Shown here: positions 2 through 61,157 of the stretch, piece after piece
Numbering within the stretch: position 1 is the stretch's first letter
How the letters are laid out: every line of letters begins with the position of its first letter
Sequence record: PX880101.1
Source: a phage
Direction: 5' to 3' (one strand)
DNA: 64,000 nucleotides
Notes under the pieces: model-generated
Seen by the model: only the letters and a program-made list of their open reading frames with translations
Database searches by the model: none
Told to the model about the DNA's origin: nothing
Program-made: the position numbers and the translations under genes

Positions 2-1141
2 GTGTGGCAAGGTAAGAAAATTGAGTCCAGCCACACCATCTCTTTACTGATTTCTGAACTGGATTCCTCTGATAACCTACTTCAAGGTGGTGAAGAAGTT
101 TGGATCAGTATGGGCGATAAGCTGCTTAAACCGGGTCATCAAGACTCTGTCTCTGTTAAAATTGATGACAAGTGGGAAACCGTAACGCCAGGATGGATCG
201 TAAATATCCCTTTGAAGGCAAACGAGCATAACGGTAAGACCTACTACAAAGGCTCACTGGCTAAGATGGTTAAGCTGGGTGCAGGAGAGACTCCAGCAGC
301 GACTCAGCAGCAAAAACCGCAACAAGGTGCACAATCACAAGGCCAGAAGCAGAAACCTCAGCAGAATGCCAATCAGGACGTTTTACGCATCTATGGTGAT
401 GTGACTCAGATTGTTGGCAACGTGGTTACTGTTAATGACCACAAGATTGGCGAAGGTGCTATGGTTGTAACTGATGAGCAGCTTAAAGACCTGGTGGTAG
501 GTGGTCGTGTTGCAGCCATTGTTGACAAAGACACCGGAAACATTATCAGTGGTTTCAAAGCCTATCCTCCTAAGGCAGAGAACGGTACTCAAGGCTCTGG
601 TGGCAAGCGTAAATCCTCTTACGACCCTATCGGTGTGGAAACGGGGCATAGCATCAATGCGTTGCAAATCATCCTGGATCGCGGGTTTAAGGTAGACGAC
701 CCACTAGGAGTGGCTAAAACACTACACGTAGTCACTATTGAGCTTAAGAAAGAGTATGCTCAAGCCACCAACCGAACTGAAGATGAAGTAGGTGCCAGTG
801 TCGGTAATGCGGTGTTGAACGCTTGTCGCCGTATTGACAAGAAAACGAAAGTTGATGATTTTGCAGCGGCAATTACTGCAGAAGCAAAAGATGTCTTGAC
901 TAATCTGGCTGAGCCGTTGTACGATTGGATCAAGAACGGTGCTGGGTCAACTGACCATCAAGAACCTCAGGCTGCCAAACAGGAAGCAGCTCCACAGCAA
1001 AACACTGTAGACGCTCCTCCTGTAAATGATGGGGAAGATGACCCGATGGATCAGAATCCAGCACAGTATGACTTCTGTGATGACATACCTTTCGCTCCGG
1101 TAGGTCTGCAATATGGTAAAAGTAGAATCTACGCATTGTAA
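2..1141 (+). CDS. hypothetical protein, probably 5'-truncated at window edge; Gln/Pro-rich linker in middle
   Basis: Long ORF open to the window start; no recognisable catalytic motif. Confidence 0.5.
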
Positions 1142-1736
1142 GAGGTGCATCAAGTGCGGAGAGGTGAAAAACCTCTCCGAGTTCTACAAACATCCAAAGA
1201 TGGCTGACGGTCATCTTAATAAGTGCAAAGAGTGCTGTAAGAAGGCCAGCAGAGAGGCTGACCAGTTTTCCCACGACTCTTCAGAAAAAGGTGTAATACG
1301 CGTGCTGTACAAGGCTCAAAAGTGCAACAGCAAGCAAAGAGGTCACCCTCCTCCGACTTACACCAAAAAAGAGTTTAAGGAGTGGCTATACCTGAACGGT
1401 TACAAAGAGTTGTATGATCAGTGGGTAGCCAGCGGATACGACAAAAGGAAAAAGCCTTCTTGTGACAGGATAGATGATTTCAAAGGGTACTCTTTTGATA
1501 ATATCCGTTTAACAACCTGGGGAGAAAATAAAGACAAGCAGACGGAGGATATTCTGTTGCATAGAAGCACCAGCGGTAGACGGTGTAAAAATGTAAGGAG
1601 GCTGGACATGAATGGCAACGTTCTTAAAGAATGGGTATCCCACAATTCTTGTAGAAGAGAAACCGGAATATGTGTTGATTACTACATTCATGAAAAAATT
1701 CCAGCTCCCGATGGATACCTCTATGAATACTTTTAG
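1113..1736 (+). CDS. Cys-rich (zinc-ribbon-like) basic protein; start codon uncertain
   Basis: N-terminal CxxC...CxxC pattern (CKRCIKCG...CKECC); overlaps end of upstream ORF. Confidence 0.4.
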
Positions 1737-1751
1737 CACCTAACTGACATA

Positions 1752-1779
1752 GCCCTGCCCGAAAGGGTGGGGCATTTTT
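1752..1779 (+). terminator. putative intrinsic terminator
   Basis: GC hairpin ccctgccc-gaaa-gggtgggg followed by T-run. Confidence 0.5.
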
Positions 1780-1798
1780 GTATAAGGAGATCTGAAAA

Positions 1799-2215
1799 AT
1801 GACATTAGAAGATATCATTGTTAAACCTGAGAACTATGACCAATACAACCTGTCAACTCAATCTGTAGACCTTGGATGCGCCACGGTCAGTGCGTGGATG
1901 GTTAACGGAAAAGAGCTGGATAAATGCTTAGAAGCTCACATGTCTATTAACAAGTTTCTGGATGAAAATACTCACTGGCTTGAGGGTGCAGGTGTATATG
2001 CTTCATGGTTGGAGAGTATGGGATTCGACTACCAATCTGAAGAGGGGTGGTGGAGCTATTTAGCTATCTGCCCAGAGACGCTGCAATGCTTCATGAAATA
2101 TTCTGAAGATTTGGAGTACCGGGCGGTGGTTGATAGTGCTATTGCCCGTTATAGCCGTAAACCTTTTTCCCACGACATTAAAACTGTGGAAGAATTTGTT
2201 GAAGTTTTCTGTTGA
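1799..2215 (+). CDS. hypothetical protein
   Basis: ORF preceded by aaggaga RBS. Confidence 0.5.
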   Translation: MTLEDIIVKPENYDQYNLSTQSVDLGCATVSAWMVNGKELDKCLEAHMSINKFLDENTHWLEGAGVYASWLESMGFDYQSEEGWWSYLAICPETLQCFMKYSEDLEYRAVVDSAIARYSRKPFSHDIKTVEEFVEVFC

Positions 2216-2311
2216 CACAAGTTGAAAGGTGTGCAATTATAACTTCATAGAACGGGAGGACGTGATGAACGAAGAAAACTGGGATGTATAACTAACAGGA
2301 GGCCACTGCCC

Positions 2312-2509
2312 ATGATTTATCGAATCCGTGTAAGAGAAGATGCACCAGGCTGTTACTTTGACTGGCGTGGGTGGTGGTTTCTCCACCCAATGGATGGACT
2401 CACAGATAGAATGCTGGAGGCTGCCCTTTATACAGATACCGACATAGAATATAATCTTTATCTGAAGGACGGTATAGATAACGGCCTGTTTGAAGCAATT
2501 CCTGTGTAA
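2312..2509 (+). CDS. hypothetical small protein
   Basis: ORF with aggagg RBS upstream. Confidence 0.4.
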   Translation: MIYRIRVREDAPGCYFDWRGWWFLHPMDGLTDRMLEAALYTDTDIEYNLYLKDGIDNGLFEAIPV

Positions 2510-2577
2510 GAGACTATGATAGCCATGTTTTATGATCTTCCTGTAGCACCACCACCTGTTGAACCCGGAGAACTAAG

Positions 2578-3003
2578 ATGATCTATGAAATGCCAAAACT
2601 GATTCGCGACGATGCCCAAAACGCCCACACCTTTATCATGGGCAAGCGCATGGATATTATTTGTCATAAAGACTTCTGGGAAGGGAGTTACTTCACAGAG
2701 TATTTTGGTAAACTGGACAATGGTCTGCTGATCCAGTTCTACACCGATGCGGAAAACAACATTCACTGGGAGTTCGAAACTGAAGATATCCATAAACTTT
2801 TCACCTTCCTCGGTATTAAGGTTGAGGCCAAGTTTGAAGAAGGTGAGTGCGACGATTGTGGATTCTATGAGGTAACAGATTTCTACCTTCCAAGTGGTAA
2901 AAATCTCTACTACGAAAGCCACTTCGGCAACTCAAATATGCCACAGTGTTGGGATGAGTTTTTGGAAATTGCAGAAGAGGAGCTGGAATACCGTGATTAT
3001 TGA
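2578..3003 (+). CDS. hypothetical acidic protein
   Basis: ORF; no motif recognised. Confidence 0.5.
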   Translation: MIYEMPKLIRDDAQNAHTFIMGKRMDIICHKDFWEGSYFTEYFGKLDNGLLIQFYTDAENNIHWEFETEDIHKLFTFLGIKVEAKFEEGECDDCGFYEVTDFYLPSGKNLYYESHFGNSNMPQCWDEFLEIAEEELEYRDY

Positions 3004-3451
3004 TACTGTAGAGGGAGATCTAATCTCCCTTTTCAAGAAAGGGGCAGGACACATGATCCACGGTTGCAACTGCTTTCACACAATGGGTGCAGGCATAGCG
3101 AAAGATATTGCCCGTGAGTTCCCTCAAGCATTGGCAGCAGACAAAGAGACTGCTTATGGTAATCTAGACAAGCTGGGTATGTTTTCTTGTTGGGAGCATT
3201 TTGCCAAGAACAAGGTTGTATATGGAATCAACCTATATACTCAGTTCTACCCAGGACCTAATGCTGAATACTTCTCAATCATGAAAGGCTTTGAGCGAGT
3301 CAACGAGGTATTCAAAGGTATGTCATTACCGTTCTACATTCCTAAAATCGGATGCGGTATTGGTGGTCTAAAGTGGGAACACGTGGAAGACGTCATTAAT
3401 CTTGCCACCACCGACATCGATGTGATCGTGGTGGAGTACAAAAAGTGTTGA
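2993..3451 (+). CDS. macro domain (ADP-ribose binding / processing) protein; proposed GTG start overlapping upstream stop
   Basis: N-terminal GDL...HGCNCFHTMGAGIAKDI resembles the macro-domain signature (GDIT...NAAN...GGGV..AI) from memory; GIGGL near C-terminus. Confidence 0.5.
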   Translation: MIIDTVEGDLISLFKKGAGHMIHGCNCFHTMGAGIAKDIAREFPQALAADKETAYGNLDKLGMFSCWEHFAKNKVVYGINLYTQFYPGPNAEYFSIMKGFERVNEVFKGMSLPFYIPKIGCGIGGLKWEHVEDVINLATTDIDVIVVEYKKC

Positions 3452-3702
3452 CGACCATCTTCTGAGGTGATATAGTTTCCACAACAACTAAGAGAGGAGA
3501 GCACTGTGGAGACTAAAATCTTAATTCTTGCTGTGGTAGATACAACCGAAGGAGCTATATTCGAATCTGCAGGAGGGTATTTCTACCTACCATACGGAAA
3601 AAGAACTTCCGAGCCAAGTAAAGATTCAATCCTCAAAGTGTTCCCGTGTGCTTTCTGGCTGGAGATTTTGGTATAAGATTGCAGAGGATTTTGGAGAGAA
3701 TT

Positions 3703-3897
3703 ATGAGAAACAAGAAAGAGCTTTACTCTGGCGAGTGGATTAACGATCAACAGATCGGAGAGGTAACCTGCTTCCGATGTTTTACCAGGTACAATATTAA
3801 AACTGCACCAAAAAGTGTTCCAAAGACTGACGGTTATTACATAAAAGAACCTCATTGCCCAAAATGTAAATGCCGATTGTACTGGAGCAATCTGTAA
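3703..3897 (+). CDS. small zinc-ribbon protein
   Basis: CFRC...CPKC pairs; ATG with ggagag RBS; the ORF-track start further upstream lacks an RBS. Confidence 0.4.
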   Translation: MRNKKELYSGEWINDQQIGEVTCFRCFTRYNIKTAPKSVPKTDGYYIKEPHCPKCKCRLYWSNL

Positions 3898-16994: not shown

Positions 16995-17024
16995 CAGGGG
17001 CTTTAAAAGGCCCCTTTCTTTTTG
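16995..17024 (+). terminator. intrinsic terminator ending the plus-strand small-gene array
   Basis: Hairpin aggggc-tttaaaa-gcccct followed by ttctttttg. Confidence 0.6.
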
Positions 17025-17599
17025 TCTGTATTTCTCCTACCACAAACGGCCCAGCCTGGCAAGTGGAATAATTGACTAGCCATCAATCCCACACACTGTA
17101 CAAATATACATGGAAAATAACTATTGCATAATTTTTCATTGTGTGGTAGCAAGTCCATTTTTACCCGTTTTCTCTCTCAAAATTGCACGTAATGCCGCTA
17201 TTGCACAAATTTTAACCTGATGCACATCTCCAATATCTTGTCAACAACTAAAAATCTTTATAAGTCATACACTTACACAGCATCGAAAGCGTGTTCTACG
17301 CGAAAAATCGAGTATAACTATAGCCGCCAGATCTCAGAATTCACGTACGCACGCCATTCTATAGCCTGCAAAGTATTTATTCCAACCACAGAATAACGGA
17401 ATAGTCAATACCTGCATAAAATAATTATTCGTGTAAACTGCATAACATAAATCAGCTCAGGTGTCAACATTTTTCGTAAACAGTCCGAAATTATCACGAT
17501 GAGTTATCATAAACAGAGAAATCTTTAGTCGTCTAATGTTTACTGTACATTACTATACTGACTGGAATCATTAGATGACTAAGAGAAAGATAAGAAATA

Positions 17600-18020
17600 A
17601 TTAATAATGTAATTATTTTACCTGTAACAATAAGGCAACTATGCAAACGAATGGCATGGCGCGACGGAGTCGCGACATAATATAAAAGCAGTAACCATCA
17701 CCCCCGTGATAGTTTGTCTGCAATCTATTAATCAGATCATAGTTGCCTTGTATTCAGTTAATCATGACATAATAAGCAAGGCAACTATAGATCTGCTAAT
17801 AGTTGCCCTGCTTTTATATTATGTCATAGAAACACCCGAAGGGGTGACCAAAGGTCACCTGGCATGGCCAGTGAAAGATTATTAACTTGTTAATTGTTAA
17901 CTTGCTAATTGTTTTCATGCAAACGAATGTCATGGCTTATCCTATCTGTGTAAACAGTTAAGGTGTAAACTATCCAGGCGTAAACAGTCTATGCGGGAAC
18001 AATCTATACGTGAACAGTGA
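17600..18020. repeat. cluster of direct and inverted repeats
   Basis: AGGCAACTAT x4 in both orientations; catgcaaacgaatg(g/t)catggc x2; palindrome ggtgacc-aaa-ggtcacc; five copies of a G(T/C)GTAAACAG-like iteron between 17945 and 18015. Confidence 0.6.
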
Positions 18021-18629
18021 AACATGAAATAATAACAATCGTTATTGTGTCGAAAGTGTATAAGGTGTCATAGTATGTCAGACAAGTTTTTCTCCTCTTT
18101 GTCAAGTGCTGCATGAAAATTTACAAACTGGTATGGTAGCATTTTTGCGGCCCTGTTTACATTCAGTTGTGTATGTATAACCCTTGTTGTGTGGGCGTTT
18201 AGACGTCTGGACGGTTGGAAGTCTACAGGTCAATATCTAATCTATTGGCTGCTAACTATATCCCACACAAATAGTAAGAAATACAATTGTTATGTGAGTA
18301 AACGGTAACTCATGTTATCAATCCCTGTATGGATCGCCAGTGGTGCGCATAATGGGTATTATGTTAAATTGCCCGTAATGATAACTATTCTCACAATGAT
18401 AGGTATTCTCATTCACTCCCACAAGATAGGTTGCAAATGTTGTGCCACTGTGTGAACGGCCTCACCTATTAATTTGCCTCACTGCCTCGATATTTGAGAA
18501 TTGTTATAAGAATGAGAAGTATTCCCATTTCGTCCGCCTGGCAGCACTCCAGTCGCTACCGCTCATGACAGGGCAGAACTGGGTCCATTCAGATATTTCT
18601 GGCTGACTCTTCAGGTCTGTGTGGGAAAA

Positions 18630-18810
18630 GCCAACCTCTCCGGCGGGGCAGGGGTAGGTCAATTAAAAAATTTACGTGGTGTATGAAGAGCCCTTCAGGT
18701 AAGGCATGTATTATGGGATGAAACACCCTTCAGGCAATGATATTTGTGGGTGGGATATTTGCTGGAAAGCCAGATATGACGGGACTCCTGGCGGGGCAGG
18801 GGTAGTACAG
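18630..18810. repeat. direct repeats (ggcggggcaggggtag x2; cccttcagg x2)
   Basis: Two ~17 bp units about 148 bp apart, plus a second repeated unit between them. Confidence 0.55.
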
Positions 18811-19500
18811 ACAGGGGAAATATGGTGGATGTAGTTGGGTGGATTGATCAGGCAGGTAGAGTATGGAATATGTTACAAGTATGTTAAATATGGAGGATGA
18901 ATATCTGTAGGATTTGTGTGTAAAATCAAAGACTTAAGTGGTGTTGTGGTATTTTCTATAAATAATTCAAGTTTAATAGGTAATATTTGTCTCTATCCGC
19001 TTTGTGTGGTAAACAAATTCAGATGGTGTTGGTTTACAAGTGTATACATAATATACAAATTAAAGATACAAGAAACCCCCCTCCCCCTTCGGCTACCATT
19101 CACCTTTTCCTCTGACTGGTACTTAAACACTTATTCAGACTCTTCAGGTTATCACCCATATATCATATGGCAGTGACTGGTGTCCTCCGGCCCCTCTTTC
19201 GTCACCCGTCCGCTTCGCCATGCTAATGCCATAGCCAACGGTTCGGTTGTTCACCCTGTTCACTCAGGTGTATCTCCATACCCCTTCAAACCGAAGAGAA
19301 CAGAAAACCCGAATTACTCGGTAAAAGAAAAGAGAAGAACTTAATTTTATCAGGATAGGCAAGAATGTCAAGGCATGACTGCTCACTAAACAAGCAAACA
19401 GTCATGTGTGGAAGGTAAGTGATTGTGGTGGTAGGAAATTTAGTTGAAAGATGTGTTATAGGTGCGCTTCCAGCACTTTAGCCGGGCAGCTAATTGTGTG

Positions 19501-51661: not shown

Positions 51662-52945
51662 TCATTCCAGAACCTCCCAAGTGTCTGGGTCAACATTTCG
51701 GACGCATATACCGACAGGGAATTGGTAGTTGTTGTCTTCTGTCCTTGATTGATATTTGAAGGTGACAAACTTGCCGATCATTTCCTGCATCCTGTCATAG
51801 CTACGCTCCTCGTGCGTGCCTTTCATCTTCATTTTAACAATAACACCTTCCTTGTCAACACAGATAAGAACACCTTCATCATTCTTATCTTTCTCAACGT
51901 CAATAACTTTCACCTCTGCGTCGTTGAACTTTTTCCATTTCAATGCTTCAGATGTTCGCTGACCGTACTCGTATTTACCGCAGAAATTACGCATGATAGT
52001 ACCTTCATATCCTTCGGACATGAATATACCAACAGATTCTTCGCAATGATCAACTGTGTACGCAAGCTCTGCGTCAACAACCTTGATATGGTCAAGCATC
52101 AGAGTGGTAACGGTATCCTCTGCATCCATAAGATCCTTGCAGCGTCCAGACTCTGTTTCTGGATCCCACCACACCTTGTCGCTAGGAATATCAAAAATGT
52201 GATACTCCAGATCGTAGCTACAGTACCCACCGTAACGCAAATCATCACGAACAGGCTCAACATCGACAGGAATATCTACCTTGTTGAAGTTTTTGTATGT
52301 TGATAAGCCTGCCTTAATTGCTGCATGACGGCGTTTTTTATCTGCCTCATAGTCTTTATCGATCTCGGCCTGAATCTCTTCCTGTGTGCGCCACCGTTTA
52401 GCAAGAGACACTATTTTCTGCAAAGGAAGACCATGAATGTATAGTTCCCCATCAAGTTGTTTAATCCCAGTGGTAGAATGGAAAGAACGAAGTTGCTCTA
52501 AAAGCTTTCCTTGAATAGGGTAGGACTTATTACCACGGGAAATAAATTTAGGCTCACCATTTTGGAAAACAACAAGCAGACGAAGGCCATCTAACTTACG
52601 CAAGATCCAGCAAGGTAATTTAAGTGCCTTGCCACGCTTCAGGTAGTCATGCACCAGCATGGGTAAAAGATCAACACCCTGCTCGCAATCTTCCATGTTT
52701 TCAACATACCCCAGACGGACTTGTTTTTCCCACTTGCTGATAGCCTCAAGCTCGGCCTGTTGCTCAGCTGTAGTCTCGTTGGCACGACCTACGTTCTTAG
52801 GTGTGCATACCGTCTCTTTGTACTGCAGTTTACCATCAAGCTTGCCAAACTCTACGATAACCTTATCACCATCCGTGAATACTTTCCACTGTTGGTAGCT
52901 GCCATCTTTATTCAGTGCGTACAGTGTTGTTTTGATCTGATGCAT
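51662..52945 (-). CDS. ATP-dependent DNA ligase
   Basis: Nucleotidyltransferase motifs: I LRKLDG, III LDGELYIHG, IV EGYEGTIMRN, V LKWKKF. Confidence 0.6.
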   Translation of the reverse strand: MHQIKTTLYALNKDGSYQQWKVFTDGDKVIVEFGKLDGKLQYKETVCTPKNVGRANETTAEQQAELEAISKWEKQVRLGYVENMEDCEQGVDLLPMLVHDYLKRGKALKLPCWILRKLDGLRLLVVFQNGEPKFISRGNKSYPIQGKLLEQLRSFHSTTGIKQLDGELYIHGLPLQKIVSLAKRWRTQEEIQAEIDKDYEADKKRRHAAIKAGLSTYKNFNKVDIPVDVEPVRDDLRYGGYCSYDLEYHIFDIPSDKVWWDPETESGRCKDLMDAEDTVTTLMLDHIKVVDAELAYTVDHCEESVGIFMSEGYEGTIMRNFCGKYEYGQRTSEALKWKKFNDAEVKVIDVEKDKNDEGVLICVDKEGVIVKMKMKGTHEERSYDRMQEMIGKFVTFKYQSRTEDNNYQFPVGICVRNVDPDTWEVLE

Positions 52946-53214
52946 TACTCGGTCTCTTCCTTAAAAATTTTAAACATCTCTTCTTTACTCATTACCAACC
53001 AGTCTCCCATAAAGTCAACTAGCCAATCTCCCTGGTACAAGACAAGGTTACCAAAAGGCTCGACAAGCTCACACATGCGACGAAGATCTCTGGTCCGAAC
53101 AGGTGACGATGTAAACACACCTGTATCAATCCACCGTTGCAGATCAGATACTGATGAAGAGCTTCCGTCAAACTGATGTGCTTCTACAGGTTTAGCAAGA
53201 TTAAATAACGGCAT
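52945..53214 (-). CDS. hypothetical small protein
   Basis: ORF. Confidence 0.4.
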   Translation of the reverse strand: MPLFNLAKPVEAHQFDGSSSSVSDLQRWIDTGVFTSSPVRTRDLRRMCELVEPFGNLVLYQGDWLVDFMGDWLVMSKEEMFKIFKEETE

Positions 53215-53509
53215 TGCAGTCCTCCTTCTGTAGTAGGTCTTTTATAGGATAAACAAGTAAGTGTGGGTCGTAATAACGTATAGTCCTATTCTGCCACACT
53301 ATGAACTTTATTACAACCAAATTTACAATATCTTTATCACCATGTAGCCCAACACACACATTTGTCCATATTTTGTGGTTGAAGACCTTGCTATCGATGT
53401 AGATTTTAGTGTCAAACTTATCTTCCATTCTACCAATAAGTTTGATCAGCTCCTTCATCTGGTCGCCAAACACAGCATCTTTTTCAAGATCTCTGGAATG
53501 CTTGTACAT
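53201..53509 (-). CDS. hypothetical protein
   Basis: ORF. Confidence 0.4.
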   Translation of the reverse strand: MYKHSRDLEKDAVFGDQMKELIKLIGRMEDKFDTKIYIDSKVFNHKIWTNVCVGLHGDKDIVNLVVIKFIVWQNRTIRYYDPHLLVYPIKDLLQKEDCNAVI

Positions 53510-53571
53510 AACTGACTACCTCACTGCATACTTTCCATAATAAGTAAAGCCGGGTAATCCCGGCTATGTTG

Positions 53572-54285
53572 TTAAATATACTCTGTTACATCCTTGAAGC
53601 TCGAAGGCTTCATAATCTTACCTTTACTGTCAAGGAATATAATAACTTTATTGCCGTTGTAGAACTCCTCTTTAGCAACGAAACCTTCGTAGCGACCACC
53701 AAAACGACGCTCAAGATCTTTAATCTCCAACTCGATGAGTTGTTCAGCAGGCATATCTGCACTGGCACCGTGTGAATGCCGTAGATGGTTGATCCGTGCA
53801 AACTTACTGTCATTAGATTTTAGAACCTTCCGCATCATCCCACACACATCCCCGCTAAGCTGGAACAGCAAAGCTGTTGATAACTCCGCTAGTCGGTAAG
53901 ATGACGCTCTTTGCTTGGATGTGTTTTTCGCAGCGATCAGTGTATCATAGAACTCACCGATCTTGAACTTAAGACCTCGCGGATTATCAAACAGGTTTGA
54001 CCACTTTTCGTGGTTATCATTAACAAGATAAGCTGCATAACTTGTGACAACGTGAAGATCGCAGGCCTCTTTTAGCAGGTGATCTCCACCATCACCTTTC
54101 TCCAGCTCTTCCAAAACCTCATTGAACTCTTCCTCAATGAAGCTAAGCTGTAATTCGAATGGTGTGTATGATTTTTTCACTTTAGCTGCCACACGGTTCC
54201 AGTTTTCCACCCAGTTGGCAGACCAAAGGTAGTTTTCAGGCTGGGACAGTTTTTCCAGGTTGTCGATCAGTTTAGTATTCAGCAT
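53572..54285 (-). CDS. hypothetical protein, possibly MazG-like NTP pyrophosphohydrolase
   Basis: EEEFNEVLEELEKGD...LLKEACDL resembles the MazG EExxE...D pattern; weak. Confidence 0.3.
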   Translation of the reverse strand: MLNTKLIDNLEKLSQPENYLWSANWVENWNRVAAKVKKSYTPFELQLSFIEEEFNEVLEELEKGDGGDHLLKEACDLHVVTSYAAYLVNDNHEKWSNLFDNPRGLKFKIGEFYDTLIAAKNTSKQRASSYRLAELSTALLFQLSGDVCGMMRKVLKSNDSKFARINHLRHSHGASADMPAEQLIELEIKDLERRFGGRYEGFVAKEEFYNGNKVIIFLDSKGKIMKPSSFKDVTEYI

Positions 54286-54298
54286 TAAAGGTCTCCTT

Positions 54299-55060
54299 TT
54301 AAAGTTCCATAAAGTTTTCTACAGTTTCAATAAATGCTTTATCAGAGAAAGCGTCAACAGCACCGTTAAACCATACAGGGATCCCGCGATCCTCATATTG
54401 ATAAAGGTCGCTACGTGAAATGCCACTTCCATCTGCACTCTGCGAATCATACTTGTTTACAATCAGCAGTTTTGTGCCTTTACAAGTAGCAGGAAACAAT
54501 TCCCAGTTAAAATTAATAACTGTGTTAGAACAACCTACCAGGATCACCATATCATTGCTTGTGAGAGATGTCAACAGGTCATACATGTCTGTATACTTAG
54601 GAGCAACCTCACCGAAGAACACTACATTGGGCTTAACCCAGGTATACTTGCCTGTATCTACCTCCGTGTATCCGATATTTTTAATTACATCATTACCTTC
54701 AGCATCTTCGTAGGTGATTTCAGGCAAATACCCGTGGACATGTAAAATATCTTCATGTTTTACACCAGCACGCTCCAGCAAATCATCTACATTGGTAGTA
54801 AGGTTGATCACACGACCAGACCAGCGGGAATACCACTCAGCGATCCGAAGATGTGCAAGGTTAGGATCAACACTGCCCAGAGCTACACGACGTGCATTGT
54901 AAAAGTCATGCACCTTATAGTAGTTCTTGGCAAAGGTGTGGATGTTGCACACCTCATCGATGCTGAAATTCTCCCACATTGCAGTGCTACCAGATCGGAA
55001 AGTGGGAATACCAGATTCAGCGCTCAAACCAGCACCGGAGATAATAATCAGTCGTCGCAT
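54299..55060 (-). CDS. Sir2-family (sirtuin-like) NAD-dependent enzyme
   Basis: GAGLSAESGIPTFRS and NVVFFGE match sirtuin signatures; no CxxC zinc ribbon seen. Confidence 0.7.
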   Translation of the reverse strand: MRRLIIISGAGLSAESGIPTFRSGSTAMWENFSIDEVCNIHTFAKNYYKVHDFYNARRVALGSVDPNLAHLRIAEWYSRWSGRVINLTTNVDDLLERAGVKHEDILHVHGYLPEITYEDAEGNDVIKNIGYTEVDTGKYTWVKPNVVFFGEVAPKYTDMYDLLTSLTSNDMVILVGCSNTVINFNWELFPATCKGTKLLIVNKYDSQSADGSGISRSDLYQYEDRGIPVWFNGAVDAFSDKAFIETVENFMEL

Positions 55061-55068
55061 AAGTGTCC

Positions 55069-55449
55069 TCAGTAGATGTTTTGTTTAATCTCTATTCCAA
55101 ACTTCTTGAATGAGTCAGCAGCAAGCATAAATTTACGAGCTGCCGATGGATTAGAAGTATGCACGAAAATAATCACGTTGTCAATAAGTGGTGGCTTTCC
55201 GAATACAAGTTTCTCCTCTAGCGCAGAGAAGCAGTCGTACCCTTCAAGCACTTCACCTAGATCATTGTCAAAATGCCACTCAGAAACGCGCCTGTAGAGC
55301 TTTCTATTATCGTTAATAAAATCCATGAACTCAGAAGAGTTCTTCAGCCAAAGAGCATCTTGGATTCCGTAATTTGACGGATCTCTCAAGTCATCTAGCC
55401 ACACAATCAACTTCTTCATTGCATATAGTCCTCGTTGTGAAAATAGCAA
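55069..55449 (-). CDS. hypothetical protein
   Basis: ORF. Confidence 0.4.
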   Translation of the reverse strand: MLFSQRGLYAMKKLIVWLDDLRDPSNYGIQDALWLKNSSEFMDFINDNRKLYRRVSEWHFDNDLGEVLEGYDCFSALEEKLVFGKPPLIDNVIIFVHTSNPSAARKFMLAADSFKKFGIEIKQNIY

Positions 55450-56333
55450 TCAAGTATCTCACGGCGTTCCTGCTCCAGGAGGCAGTTCCACACATCTTCT
55501 GTGTAATTGCTACGAATGAAGTTTACCATGCCATAAAACTCTTCGTCAATACGTTTAAAGATATCATCATCCCAAATCTTCCAAGCTTTACCCCTCATTA
55601 CGGCCTTCCGTGCCAAATAGTATGGAGACTTGATCTTCAGCTGCAGGTCATAAGGGTAGTAAGGCTTACGGATCATATACCCTTCGCCCCTTGTTTCTGC
55701 AGCTAATTCTTTTGCATAGCTGAACGGGATTTCACGCACAGTGTGAGGACGTTTTGCACCAAGGTATTTGGCAATCCCATCTAAAGCTGCTTCTGGTAGC
55801 ATTATTCCAGAATCATTATATCTGCAACCTATCAAATATGCGCCATGGTCTTCTTGAACAATATGCGGATCTGAAGGGTGACAAATTTCAAACATGAATG
55901 TCATGTTTTCATTGCCCATAACCTTCTTGATAAGATCTAAATTACCACATTGCTCTTGGATGGTTTCCTTTGCAAGGTTACAATATGGAGAATCAAGAGA
56001 CCCGGTTGTTGAGAACAATAGGTCACCTTTATGAGATGATACCACACCAAGGAATCCGTTCTTTTTCTCTACCGCAGTCACAAGCTTATTGTCAGGCAGG
56101 TTGGTGGAGTTTTCTCCCAAGTTAAACACTTTTGTGAAGGGCCATGCCACAACATTTCCTTCATTACCTACAACAATGCCTCGGCACTCCAGTAAACGAG
56201 GGGACAAATGCCATAAATTGTTGTAAAATACTTTTCTAGCATATTTATAGATCTTTAACCCGAGATCTGGGTAATACCTACTGGTTACAAGACCTTTGTC
56301 AACTAGGTCGTCTGCATTAAAATACTTCATCAT
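55416..56333 (-). CDS. putative RNA ligase (Rnl2-like nucleotidyltransferase)
   Basis: Candidate motifs I EKKNG, III FMFEI, IV EGYMIRKP, V LKIKS; no DNA-ligase OB fold evident. Confidence 0.45.
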   Translation of the reverse strand: MMKYFNADDLVDKGLVTSRYYPDLGLKIYKYARKVFYNNLWHLSPRLLECRGIVVGNEGNVVAWPFTKVFNLGENSTNLPDNKLVTAVEKKNGFLGVVSSHKGDLLFSTTGSLDSPYCNLAKETIQEQCGNLDLIKKVMGNENMTFMFEICHPSDPHIVQEDHGAYLIGCRYNDSGIMLPEAALDGIAKYLGAKRPHTVREIPFSYAKELAAETRGEGYMIRKPYYPYDLQLKIKSPYYLARKAVMRGKAWKIWDDDIFKRIDEEFYGMVNFIRSNYTEDVWNCLLEQERREILDCYFHNEDYMQ

Positions 56334-56395
56334 ACGTTCCTCATTTGTCGTTTTGTCAGTCTATCCTGTCACACAAATAACCTAGTGTCAACACT

Positions 56396-56424
56396 TGAAA
56401 TTAACAAAACAGTTAGATATACTA
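56396..56424 (+). promoter_or_regulatory. sigma70-like promoter (TTGAAA-N17-TATACT)
   Basis: Hexamers upstream of the kinase gene. Confidence 0.45.
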
Positions 56425-56451
56425 TCGTTGAAATTAAAACGGAGGGTCACT

Positions 56452-56862
56452 ATGTCTAAAATGCTATATATCGTGCGTGGTCTACCAAGGTCTGGCAAAT
56501 CAACACTGGCAAATGCGCTATCTTTAGAGGGTCTGTATCCACATTTTGAGAACGACATGTTCTGGTATGACGATGACGGCAATTACAACTGGGATGCAAG
56601 TAAAGTAACACTCGCAGCGAAATGGTGCAAAGATAACGTAGAAGATATGATGCGTATGGGATACGACCGTATCGTGGTAAGTAATACGTTTACAAAAGAA
56701 AAACATGTGCAGGAATATGTTGACATGGCAATCAGTCATGGGTATAGTTATACCGTGATCGTGGTTGAAAACCGCCACGGTAATAAAAGCATTCATGATG
56801 TTCCAGACAAGGTTGTGGATCGTATGGAACGCCAGCTTAAAAACTGCATTAAACTTAAATGA
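56452..56862 (+). CDS. P-loop polynucleotide-kinase-like protein
   Basis: Walker A GLPRSGKST at N-terminus; start set at ATG after ggaggg RBS. Confidence 0.5.
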   Translation: MSKMLYIVRGLPRSGKSTLANALSLEGLYPHFENDMFWYDDDGNYNWDASKVTLAAKWCKDNVEDMMRMGYDRIVVSNTFTKEKHVQEYVDMAISHGYSYTVIVVENRHGNKSIHDVPDKVVDRMERQLKNCIKLK

Positions 56863-56869
56863 GGAATGT

Positions 56870-57424
56870 ATGAAATACTTTGTAACAAGCGACACACACT
56901 TTCTCCACCAGCGGGTCATGGAGTTTGATTCATGTCAAAAACACAGATCTCAGTATGATCACAATCTTGACAGTATGAATGCGGGAATCATCGCCGAATG
57001 GAACTCTGTTGTGTCACCTGCAGACACTGTGTTCCACTTGGGAGATATTGCGTGCACTAATGATAAGAATATCAACAACTTACTTCCAGATATTCTAAAT
57101 ATGTTGAACGGACATATTATTCTTGTTCGTGGCAACCATGACACAAGGACGACTGTCAGAATTATGAAAGAGTTCGGTCATGAGGTTGTAGATTATTACG
57201 AGCTTCGCCACAACAAGAATTTGATCTGTATGAGCCATTACCAATTTGCAAAGTGGAACAGAAAGCCTCACGGATCAGTCCAACTGTTCGGTCATGCTCA
57301 CGGAACCACACAACAGTTGTTTGGCAGGCAGCTTGATGTCGGTTGGGATGTGTGGGGGAGACTCTTACCATTAGAAGAGGCATACCGTATTGCAATGAGT
57401 TTTGCTATTGACAGCGGGGAGTAA
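56870..57424 (+). CDS. calcineurin-like metallophosphoesterase
   Basis: SDTHF, GDIA and GNHD motifs; start set at MKYFVTSDTHF rather than the upstream in-frame M inside the kinase gene. Confidence 0.6.
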   Translation: MKYFVTSDTHFLHQRVMEFDSCQKHRSQYDHNLDSMNAGIIAEWNSVVSPADTVFHLGDIACTNDKNINNLLPDILNMLNGHIILVRGNHDTRTTVRIMKEFGHEVVDYYELRHNKNLICMSHYQFAKWNRKPHGSVQLFGHAHGTTQQLFGRQLDVGWDVWGRLLPLEEAYRIAMSFAIDSGE

Positions 57425-60344: not shown

Positions 60345-60419
60345 GCCCTGTTAGCTTAGTGGATAAAGCAGCGGCCTTCTAAGCCGTTGACACTGGTTCG
60401 AGTCCAGTACGGGGTGCCA
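60345..60419 (+). tRNA. tRNA-Arg (anticodon TCT)
   Basis: Hand-folded cloverleaf: acceptor GCCCTGT/ACGGGGT with G-U pairs, loop CTTCTAA, T-loop TTCGAGT, encoded CCA. Confidence 0.75.
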
Positions 60420-60423
60420 AATT

Positions 60424-60510
60424 GGGGAGTTATCCCGTAGAGGTAGCGGTGTAGACTGTAAATCTATTGTCATTGCGACTCGGGTGGTTCGACTCCACCA
60501 CTCCCCACCA
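60424..60510 (+). tRNA. tRNA-Tyr (anticodon GTA)
   Basis: Acceptor GGGGAGT/ACTCCCC, loop CTGTAAA, long variable arm, T-loop TTCGACT, CCA. Confidence 0.8.
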
Positions 60511-60624
60511 AATTTATATTTTTAGATGCATAAATAATACAGATAATGGCATTGATATTTATCGTCGTTTATACTAGTCACTAACTGCTCGAAAATCAGT
60601 GTCATTATCAGTATAATTTATAAA

Positions 60625-60715
60625 GGAGGGTAGGGAGCAATGGTGCTCAAGCGGTCTTGAAAACCGTCCCGTTGGGTATGACTCGATGATGGTTCGATTC
60701 CATTACTCTCCGCCA
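60625..60715 (+). tRNA. tRNA-Ser (anticodon TGA)
   Basis: Acceptor GGAGGGT/ACTCTCC, loop CTTGAAA, long variable arm, T-loop TTCGATT, CCA. Confidence 0.7.
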
Positions 60716-60813
60716 CATTGTTGACCTTGTAATTAAGCGAAAGCCGGAAGCAGAACCGGATTATCAAATGTTACAGTCGTCATCGCCGACTAGCAACATG
60801 GTCAACATACTGA

Positions 60814-60912
60814 GCTAGGTAAGCCCTTTGGCAAGGGCGAGGATTTTTAATCCTGAAAATAGACGAGGTAGTAGTTGAATACATAGGTGGTTCGATTCCA
60901 TCACCTAGCACC
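60814..60912 (+). tRNA. aberrant tRNA-like element (possible Lys-TTT loop) with ~29 nt insertion before the T-arm
   Basis: Perfect acceptor GCTAGGT/ACCTAGC, D-arm GCCC-TTTGGCAA-GGGC, T-loop GGTTCGATTCC, but oversized variable region and imperfect anticodon stem; no encoded CCA. Confidence 0.35.
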
Positions 60913-60917
60913 TTTTT

Positions 60918-60993
60918 GCTGATGTAGCACAATCGGTAGTGCAATTGATTTGTAATCAATAGGTTGTAGGTTCAAGTCCTGCCATCAGCACCA
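60918..60993 (+). tRNA. tRNA-Thr (anticodon TGT)
   Basis: Acceptor GCTGATG/CATCAGC, D-arm GCAC/GTGC, loop TTTGTAA, T-loop TTCAAGT, CCA. Confidence 0.8.
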
Positions 60994-60994
60994 A

Positions 60995-61069
60995 GGCCCT
61001 GTAGCTGGAAGGTTCAAGCAAGCGACTCATAATCGCCAGACGGTGGTTCAATTCCACCCAGGGCCACCA
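60995..61069 (+). tRNA. tRNA-Met (anticodon CAT; could be Ile-lysidine type)
   Basis: Acceptor GGCCCTG/CAGGGCC, loop CTCATAA, T-loop TTCAATT, CCA; no initiator-type features. Confidence 0.7.
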
Positions 61070-61080
61070 AATAATAAATA

Positions 61081-61157
61081 CTCCGCGTAGCTCAGCTTGG
61101 TAGAGCGCCTGATTTGGGATCAGGAGGTCGAGTGTTCGAATCACTCCGTGGAGACCA
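61081..61157 (+). tRNA. tRNA-Pro (anticodon TGG)
   Basis: Acceptor CTCCGCG/CGTGGAG (C1:G72), D-arm GCTC/GAGC, loop TTTGGGA, T-loop TTCGAAT, CCA. Confidence 0.75.

Follow-up and report, generated by a model that had tools for sequence, protein, structure and literature searches.

Positions 54299-55060 of the phage sequence record PX880101.1, a stretch of 64,000 nucleotides hereafter referred to as the window, encode on the minus strand a zinc-less, class-III-like (CobB/SIRT5-like) sirtuin of 253 amino acids. Judged from sequence and gene order, this Sir2-like protein is one member of a conserved and already published cassette for RNA end healing and sealing, and we propose, at a probability of roughly 0.4, that it acts in the repair of phage RNA (tRNA) breaks as a Tpt1-like remover of RNA 2'-phosphates. 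The window is that of a Vequintavirus, an rV5-like myovirus of E. coli; the 2.9 kb around the sirtuin gene are 99.9% identical to Escherichia phages A6-1, I29 and MaxTheCat (the last classed as Vequintavirinae; Vequintavirus) and are found in 121 records. The literature already covers the protein family, its lack of zinc and the exact gene neighbourhood for this phage genus, the gene carries an annotation in hundreds of phage genomes, and the locus is ordinary as a discovery; what is added here are the exact gene junctions, a clade signature (a Thr substitution together with the loss of the zinc cysteines), linkage counts in other lineages and counter-examples.

The sirtuin signatures that a first-pass annotation, made from the letters alone, had reported for this open reading frame (ORF) were borne out. 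Both SGAGLSAESGIPTFRSG and PNVVFFGE are present; Pfam SIR2 (PF02146), the sole Pfam match, was found at 98.2 bits (cut-off 24, E 6.9e-28) over profile positions 1-178 of 180; PHROG 2162, 'Sir2 (NAD-dependent deacetylase)', matched with an E value of 1.5e-108; and matching phage records already carry the label 'sirtuin domain NAD-dependent deacetylase' or 'putative Sir2-like protein'. An AlphaFold2 model built from 60 homologues has the fold of a sirtuin, with a mean predicted local distance difference test (pLDDT) score of 90.2 and a predicted template modelling (pTM) score of 0.88. When this model was searched against the PDB using Foldseek, the top solved structure was E. coli CobB (E 1e-18), followed by Sir2Af1 and SIRT5, with CobB, Sir2Af1, SIRT5 and SIRT2 spanning E values of 1e-18 to 1e-14. 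The sequence search of the PDB agreed with the fold search (CobB 3e-21, SIRT5 6e-21). The ART-fold (ADP-ribosyltransferase-fold) PTS_2-RNA domain of Tpt1/KptA is not present in the protein, for which Pfam gives SIR2 only and the fold is that of a sirtuin. An identity as a ThsA/DSR-like NADase was considered and dropped, as the sirtuin matched no PADLOC family of the defence-type SIR2 models (ThsA, DSR1/2, SIR2-HerA, SIR2-pAgo) at E<=0.001.

Residue conservation was judged over 120 close homologues. Residues of the pocket for nicotinamide adenine dinucleotide (NAD+) and of the catalytic centre are invariant or nearly so (G9-A10-G11, S13, S16-G17, F21-R22, P66-N67-H70, N90, D92, H109-G110, F148-F149-E151, G176/S178 and N202), and the catalytic His was found in 149 of 150 cluster representatives. 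Y54 and R57, a Tyr-x-x-Arg pair invariant in the clade, align with FYNARR of CobB and FYHYRR of SIRT5; in these two proteins the pair binds the acidic acyl group. The Cys4 zinc ribbon, whose absence the first-pass annotation had also noticed, is missing from the whole clade: 0-1 Cys were counted between the catalytic HG and FGE in 120/120 homologues, unlike CobB, whose zinc cysteines sit in that segment, and the segment is modelled as a confident beta-hairpin. A second departure is Thr89 in place of the Gln of TQNxD, which is invariant in the clade, Thr or Ala being found at this position in all six phage-lineage sequences compared, from five lineages. Among the 150 best cluster representatives drawn from 1.84 billion proteins, 36 combine Thr with fewer than three Cys and 80 combine Gln with at least three, while the mixed classes hold 11 and 9; the two traits thus co-occur with an odds ratio of about 29, a figure uncorrected for relatedness. 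Tentatively, ORF 54299-55060 may be regarded as coding for a sirtuin that consumes NAD+, is catalytically competent and belongs to a subfamily specific to phages, its catalysis being predicted.

These matches bring in the main and serious rival of the RNA-repair proposal, namely that the protein is a CobB-like NAD+-dependent protein lysine deacylase (deacetylase/desuccinylase) which resets the acylation of host or phage proteins. It might, for example, activate acetyl-CoA synthetase, as proposed by Skliros et al. 2016 (PMC5107563), or de-acylate the replication and repair enzymes encoded alongside. That E. coli CobB, SIRT5 and Sir2Af1 are the best matches in both sequence and fold, with the class-III Tyr-x-x-Arg pair and all catalytic residues kept, favours such a role, and a shared Rossmann fold plus small domain (TM 0.74-0.84), an identity of 24-27% and the common motifs GAGxSxxSGIPTFR, FYxxRR, NxD, HG and FGE join the phage protein to CobB/SIRT5. 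However, the sirtuin scores far under the NCBIfam equivalog cut-offs for CobB (NF001753, 122.6 bits against 243; NF040867, 104 against 320) and also under those of five more CobB or subfamily models, while the loss of the zinc module and the Gln-to-Thr change set the clade apart. The protein of the window further differs from CobB/SIRT5 in having GCSNxVINF in place of GTSxxVxP and a different genomic context. A deacylase would moreover duplicate the CobB which the host already supplies. We consider this explanation somewhat unlikely, and two others, in which the sirtuin is paired with a macro domain or acts on small molecules, less likely than this one.

The genomic context is that of a predicted RNA-repair cassette, and the features concerned are as follows.

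51662-52945, minus strand: ATP-dependent DNA ligase, 427 amino acids (Pfam DNA_ligase_A_M and OB_2; PHROG 114).
52945-53214 and 53201-53509: two small ORFs between the DNA ligase and the MazG-like gene.
53548-53565, no strand: GC-rich hairpin AGCCGGG-TAAT-CCCGGCT, directly past the MazG-like gene.
53572-54285, minus strand: MazG-superfamily-like nucleotide pyrophosphohydrolase, 237 amino acids (PHROG 671, E 1.9e-21; without a Pfam match).
54299-55060, minus strand: the Sir2-like protein.
55069-55419, minus strand: cyclic-phosphate-processing receiver domain (cREC) protein, 116 amino acids (Pfam cREC_REC PF20274, E 5.7e-14); start set at 55419 after the annotation of a 100% identical relative.
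55416-56333, minus strand: Rnl1-like ATP-dependent RNA ligase, 305 amino acids (RNA_lig_T4_1, E 1e-14; PHROG 562, E 8.6e-66).
56452-56862, plus strand: P-loop polynucleotide-kinase-like protein, 136 amino acids (AAA_33, E 2.8e-8; PHROG 2071 and PHROG 505 'polynucleotide kinase'); named polynucleotide kinase in the annotation of a relative.
56870-57424, plus strand: calcineurin-like metallophosphoesterase, 184 amino acids (Pfam Metallophos and Metallophos_2).
60345-61157, plus strand: cluster of 7 phage tRNA genes (ARAGORN and Rfam), 3 kb from the cassette.

The minus-strand genes follow one another in the order Rnl1-like RNA ligase, cREC, Sir2, MazG-like protein, the two small ORFs and the ATP-dependent DNA ligase, and their junctions are tight. 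The stop codon of the RNA ligase overlaps the start of cREC (ATGA), 8 nt separate the cREC stop from the Sir2 ATG, and 13 nt, including the Shine-Dalgarno sequence AAGGAG, separate the Sir2 stop from the start of the MazG-like gene. The kinase and phosphoesterase genes diverge from the RNA ligase across a spacer of 118 bp (56334-56451). The first-pass annotation had placed Sir2 next to the RNA ligase and downstream of the DNA ligase. The neighbourhood stands, although cREC (55069-55419) intervenes and the two genes are not directly adjacent; as for the DNA ligase, it lies downstream of Sir2 along the direction of transcription, the reverse of what had been stated, and accompanies the cassette in related genera. 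The RNA ligase scored only 38.8 bits against the NCBIfam family of T4 RnlA (cut-off 242). Together, RNA ligase, cREC, kinase and phosphoesterase, of which the first-pass annotation had noticed the first only and had not gone on to RNA repair, are predicted to be a complete RNA end-healing and sealing set.

The same arrangement has been described by Iyer, Burroughs, Anantharaman and Aravind 2022 (PMC9503650, section 3.7.3), who distinguished three phage sirtuin neighbourhoods. Their type 2, with Escherichia phage rV5 and Proteus phage Mydo as prototypes, comprises, besides the sirtuin, a T4-like tRNA ligase, cREC, a nucleotide kinase, MazG (the label that they use for the pyrophosphohydrolase) and a calcineurin-like phosphoesterase; all six genes of this set lie inside 53572-57424, and nothing material differs between it and the cassette of the window. 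These authors noted for these sirtuins that a coupling to a macro domain is absent, and the hypothesis of a KptA/Tpt1-like removal of RNA 2'-phosphates, adopted here, is theirs. All three of their neighbourhood types were reproduced independently here.

The sirtuin fold, the conservation of its catalytic residues and a gene order maintained among relatives were observed here; each enzymatic step of the proposed repair is inferred. Metal-independent host nucleases, of the anticodon or another type, would leave 2',3'-cyclic phosphate and 5'-OH ends. The cyclic phosphate would be opened or trimmed by cREC and/or the metallophosphoesterase, the 5'-OH phosphorylated by the P-loop kinase and the break sealed by the Rnl1-like ligase. 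The sirtuin would then remove the residual 2'-phosphate by moving ADP-ribose (ADP, adenosine diphosphate) from NAD+ onto the phosphate, and the 2''-OH of the ADP-ribose, activated by His109 as general base, would displace the phosphate to yield ADP-ribose 1'',2''-cyclic phosphate (ADP-ribose>p) and nicotinamide. The reaction would be the one that Tpt1/KptA perform with another fold, and the sirtuin and Tpt1 mechanisms appear formally parallel in that an oxygen nucleophile would attack C1'' of NAD+ and the 2''-OH would attack thereafter. The by-product might be broken down by cREC, by the MazG-like protein and possibly by a distant Poa1p-like macro protein. A cyclic-phosphate product would seem to fit better than O-acyl-ADP-ribose because the recurrent partners of the sirtuin are cyclic-phosphate phosphodiesterases.

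Support for a role in RNA repair comes from the tight junctions, the hairpin past the MazG-like gene, the divergent kinase and phosphoesterase and the tRNA genes 3 kb away, as well as from the protein itself, which keeps every residue for NAD+ cleavage, the His predicted as general base and the Y54/R57 pair (a binder of acidic groups in SIRT5/CobB) without variation, stays below each NCBIfam CobB-equivalog cut-off and has no defence-SIR2 match. The hairpin may perhaps mark the end of a Rnl1-cREC-Sir2-MazG transcription unit; terminator-like sites were not above shuffle expectation (7 against 5.9±2.0), nor were promoter-like sites (21 against 17.5±4.1). Several sigma-70-like sites of the spacer between the divergent genes lie on the plus strand (e.g. 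56395-56423, TTGAAA/TATACT), the minus strand having none.

Conservation of the linkage was surveyed in 59 viral-contig loci and several phage records, which were searched locally with the window proteins. Rnl1, the kinase, the phosphoesterase, the MazG-like protein and the DNA ligase were all encoded within 5.4 kb of the sirtuin in 15/15 Vequintavirinae-like loci. In Mydovirus, with a sirtuin identity of 43-56%, the cassette genes are rearranged, the kinase being directly beside Sir2 and every gene on one strand. Sirtuins of this clade also occur next to further enzymes of RNA ends or cyclic phosphates in two unrelated groups of phages. In 29 of 32 T5-like loci an RNA ligase is missing and HAD_SAK_2, a 'Swiss-army-knife RNA repair' phosphatase (Pfam E 2.9e-20), is encoded on the same strand 0.8-1.3 kb downstream of the sirtuin. 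The jumbo phage PHA46 has the order 2H/Acb1-like phosphoesterase, Sir2, one gene without assignment, Nudix (Nudt16-like) and cREC, with NAMPT and an NMNAT-Nudix gene upstream of the sirtuin (557-3739 of locus L067). A repeated and independent pairing with cREC, 2H, HAD_SAK and Nudix is left unexplained by protein deacylation. In favour of the latter, the gene lies among replication genes in several phage lineages, with no RNA-repair genes nearby, and nicotinamide-recycling genes (NAMPT/NMNAT) are close by in sister genera and in the jumbo phage.

The deacylation idea also has a history in print. Skliros et al. 2016 (PMC5107563) described a zinc-less Sir2/CobB of the Vibrio phages KVP40/phiSt2/phiGrn1, transcribed in infection, listed homologues in T5 and other enterobacterial phages and proposed protein deacetylation coupled to NAMPT/NMNAT. 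Those proteins share with the present one the zinc-less phage sirtuin; they differ in being paired with NAMPT/NMNAT, whereas Vequintavirus is without NAD+ salvage genes and has the RNA ligase cassette.

The same salvage genes might also be read as pointing to small molecules, with the sirtuin serving as NAD+ glycohydrolase or transferase, either to produce a soluble derivative of ADP-ribose or for NAD+ turnover, and with neighbouring enzymes that act on small molecules and not on RNA. NAMPT, phosphoribosyl pyrophosphate (PRPP) synthetase or NMNAT-Nudix genes do occur 2-8 kb from the sirtuin in Mydovirus-like loci, in loci L063 and L064 and in PHA46, the partners 2H/Acb1-like, Nudix, cREC and MazG could all act on nucleotides, and NAD+ hydrolysis is suggested by annotation of the KVP40 era. 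Yet within the genus, as represented by the complete MaxTheCat genome, tblastn at E<1e-3 gave no NAMPT, PRPP synthetase, Nudix, 2H, NADAR or HAD_SAK, and the RNA ligase and polynucleotide kinase of the cassette point to a polynucleotide substrate. Canonical sirtuins are, besides, poor free NADases. We regard this explanation as improbable.

Several points weigh against the proposed removal of RNA 2'-phosphates. The nearest relatives in sequence and structure are bona fide protein deacylases and the active site is deacylase-like. To our knowledge, no sirtuin acts on an RNA phosphate, and a pathway of the T4 Pnkp/Rnl1 type does not need 2'-phosphate removal at all. The literature searched yielded computational papers only, with no assay or knockout of a phage sirtuin. 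The family is acidic throughout (median isoelectric point 5.1), which would be slightly unexpected for an RNA-binding enzyme. The link with RNA repair is also not universal, because the phAPEC8-like sirtuin loci have no recognisable RNA-repair neighbours, only PHROGs of no known function and a DNA methyltransferase, and two phages of about 90 kb likewise have no recognisable repair genes near the sirtuin, as is the case in Vibrio phage K566. Neither Rnl1 nor cREC was detectable in the complete genome of the T5-like EC122. Lastly, the synteny within the Vequintavirinae may simply be inherited.

The first-pass annotation had joined the sirtuin to a macro-domain protein elsewhere in the window.

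2993-3451, plus strand: macro-domain protein, TARG1/DarG/Poa1p-like, 152 amino acids, GTG start; not linked to the cassette.

The assignment itself held. The GTG start is preceded by a strong Shine-Dalgarno-like GAAGAGGAG, Pfam Macro (PF01661) matched at 26.9 bits (cut-off 22) and PHROG 335 with an E value of 2.5e-60, and the predicted structure (pLDDT 95.1) has a macro fold whose best match is TARG1 (E 1.4e-9, TM 0.79-0.86), with DarG and Poa1p close behind. Profile searches and structure prediction, which had been named as the check for both proteins, thus recovered both profiles, SIR2 and Macro, and both folds. The best NCBIfam and PADLOC match was the DarG macro domain (E 1e-12), far under the cut-off, and the DarG equivalog gave 47.7 bits against 250. 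The catalytic Lys of TARG1 (K84) and DarG (K80) is not kept; an invariant Gln (NxYTQ motif) is found instead, as in SCO6735.

In the reading of the first-pass annotation, the two proteins would form an NAD+/ADP-ribose module, the sirtuin ADP-ribosylating targets or making O-acyl-ADP-ribose and the macro protein reversing or hydrolysing these products, for host takeover or against host defences that deplete NAD+ or ADP-ribosylate. Both proteins are present and well folded, and nearly all of the approximately 120 Vequintavirus records have both genes; a pairing of sirtuin and macro for ADP-ribosylation is known from SirTM, the macro-linked sirtuins (PMC9503650), and by its resemblance to DarG the macro protein could plausibly, on its own, counter DNA ADP-ribosylation of the DarT type. 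Neither linkage nor distribution, however, agrees with such a module. The genes lie 51 kb apart on opposite strands and in different gene blocks, that of the macro gene being a block of small genes, and only a single one of about 66 related loci has a macro homologue within 10 kb of its sirtuin. The phyletic patterns are uncoupled, with homologues of the macro protein in 2743 phage records and of the sirtuin (PHROG 2162) in 1012. The macro family includes T4-like phages, where the gene adjoins vs, and no T4-like phage is among the sampled sirtuin hits; conversely, the complete genome of the T5-like EC122 has the sirtuin and no macro (tblastn E<1). Iyer et al. report a macro domain in ~41% of myoviruses (PMC9503650). 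The sirtuin is class-III-like and not class M, and its 60 best matches by sequence and 50 best by fold include no SirTM structure; the likeness to SirTM thus ends at a sirtuin and a macro protein in one genome, without operonic linkage and with independent phyletic patterns, and a pairing of the SirTM type was dropped on linkage and distribution. The lack of the TARG1/DarG Lys likewise argues against the module. As for countering NAD+-depleting defences, an NAD+-consuming enzyme would be an unlikely counter to NAD+ depletion, and the sirtuin has no similarity to the defence SIR2 proteins. The module hence appears improbable as an account of this sirtuin.

Outside the comparison with the sirtuin, it was observed that the macro protein is only 83% identical to its MaxTheCat counterpart (3077-3535), while the Sir2 cassette proteins are 99-100% identical, which therefore places the macro gene in a mosaic region. 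Across phage records its identities fall into distinct bands, with 39 records at 95-99% and 73 at 80-90%, which points to an exchange of alleles within a mosaic block of genes.

A looser biochemical link between the two proteins could be that a macro protein of the Poa1p/TARG1 type finishes the by-product pathway, turning ADP-ribose 1''-phosphate into ADP-ribose. Returning to the repair of RNA breaks by 2'-phosphate removal, it may be asked how far the window resembles the eukaryotic-type system for tRNA splicing and repair (Trl1, Tpt1, Cpd1, Poa1p). The likeness to Tpt1/KptA would lie in the chemistry, i.e., transfer of ADP-ribosyl from NAD+ to a phosphate oxygen and attack of the 2''-OH to give ADP-ribose>p, and in the company kept, as Tpt1 works with Cpd1 (2H) and Poa1p (macro) while an RNA ligase, a kinase and a candidate cyclic phosphodiesterase stand alongside the phage sirtuin and the macro protein of the window resembles Poa1p. 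The folds are unrelated (sirtuin Rossmann as opposed to ART) and the macro gene is unlinked, so that the relation would be a functional analogy only and not family membership. In its widest form the idea would be that the phage has rebuilt this pathway wholly from non-orthologous parts, namely an Rnl1-like ligase, a stand-alone P-loop kinase, cREC as the cyclic phosphodiesterase, the zinc-less sirtuin as an NAD+-dependent 2'-phosphotransferase and the unlinked TARG1/Poa1p-like macro protein as an ADP-ribose 1''-phosphate phosphatase. We offer this wider form as a rather speculative one.

If removal of 2'-phosphates were confirmed, sirtuin chemistry would extend from acyl-lysine to nucleic-acid phosphate, a second and unrelated fold would be available for the Tpt1 activity, and the survival of large phages in the face of tRNA-cleaving defences would be explained. 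With a rebuilt pathway, a nucleic-acid phosphate would for the first time be demonstrated as the acceptor of a sirtuin; the concept dates from a 2022 publication, and only the demonstration would be new. The remaining interest of the locus hence lies in sirtuin biochemistry, for which the BASEL phages MaxTheCat, AlexBoehm and EduardKellenberger are near-identical and genetically tractable.

Some further observations concern the neighbours of the cassette in other phages. In sister genera (Mydovirus and others), genes for NAMPT and PRPP synthetase lie 2.5-8 kb from the cassette (locus L004, 583-3130; also L027, L028, L030, L035, L048, L051, L056, L062 and L064), and enzymes of the NAMPT type would recycle the nicotinamide that the sirtuin releases; neither the window nor the complete MaxTheCat genome has a homologue of these genes. 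A gene annotated 'COG3236 / GTP cyclohydrolase II' is present in Mydovirus KPP-1 (L004, 14037-14558) and in the T5-like EC122 (L065, 45055-45504). We take COG3236 to be the NADAR ADP-ribosyl hydrolase domain; no homologue was detectable in the window or in MaxTheCat, and a Pfam search of the 20 larger hypothetical ORFs of the window gave no other NAD or ADP-ribose genes. Among the 55 cREC homologues retrieved, one divergent locus was looked at, a 152.7-kb Stephanstirmvirinae-like metagenomic contig that carries NAMPT, PRPP synthetase, cREC, DNA ligase and MazG-like genes in the same arrangement (L071, 5376-14662). Genes for a sirtuin, an RNA ligase or a kinase are lacking there within 10 kb, and cREC is therefore not strictly dependent on the sirtuin.

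Within the tRNA cluster, the tRNA-like gene at 60814-60912 (plus strand) is unusually long at 99 nt. ARAGORN assigned it a 4-base 'anticodon', atcc, its Rfam tRNA score is only 35.5 bits, and it is tRNA-Lys(AAA) in the annotation of a relative. Since the anticodon nuclease PrrC has tRNA-Lys as its classic target, the position of this gene 3 kb from the repair cassette may be of relevance.

Elsewhere in the window, positions 17000-19450 form a region of about 2.4 kb in which no ORF exceeds 86 amino acids and the GC content is 0.36-0.39, against 0.42-0.47 around it; the equivalent region of MaxTheCat is also without annotation. Plus-strand and minus-strand gene blocks meet here and the GC skew switches sign. 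The region holds a perfect 18-nt inverted repeat (17674-17691 and 17808-17825) and a perfect 16-nt direct repeat, GGCGGGGCAGGGGTAG, at 18642 and 18790, and could correspond to an origin or to a stretch for non-coding RNA.

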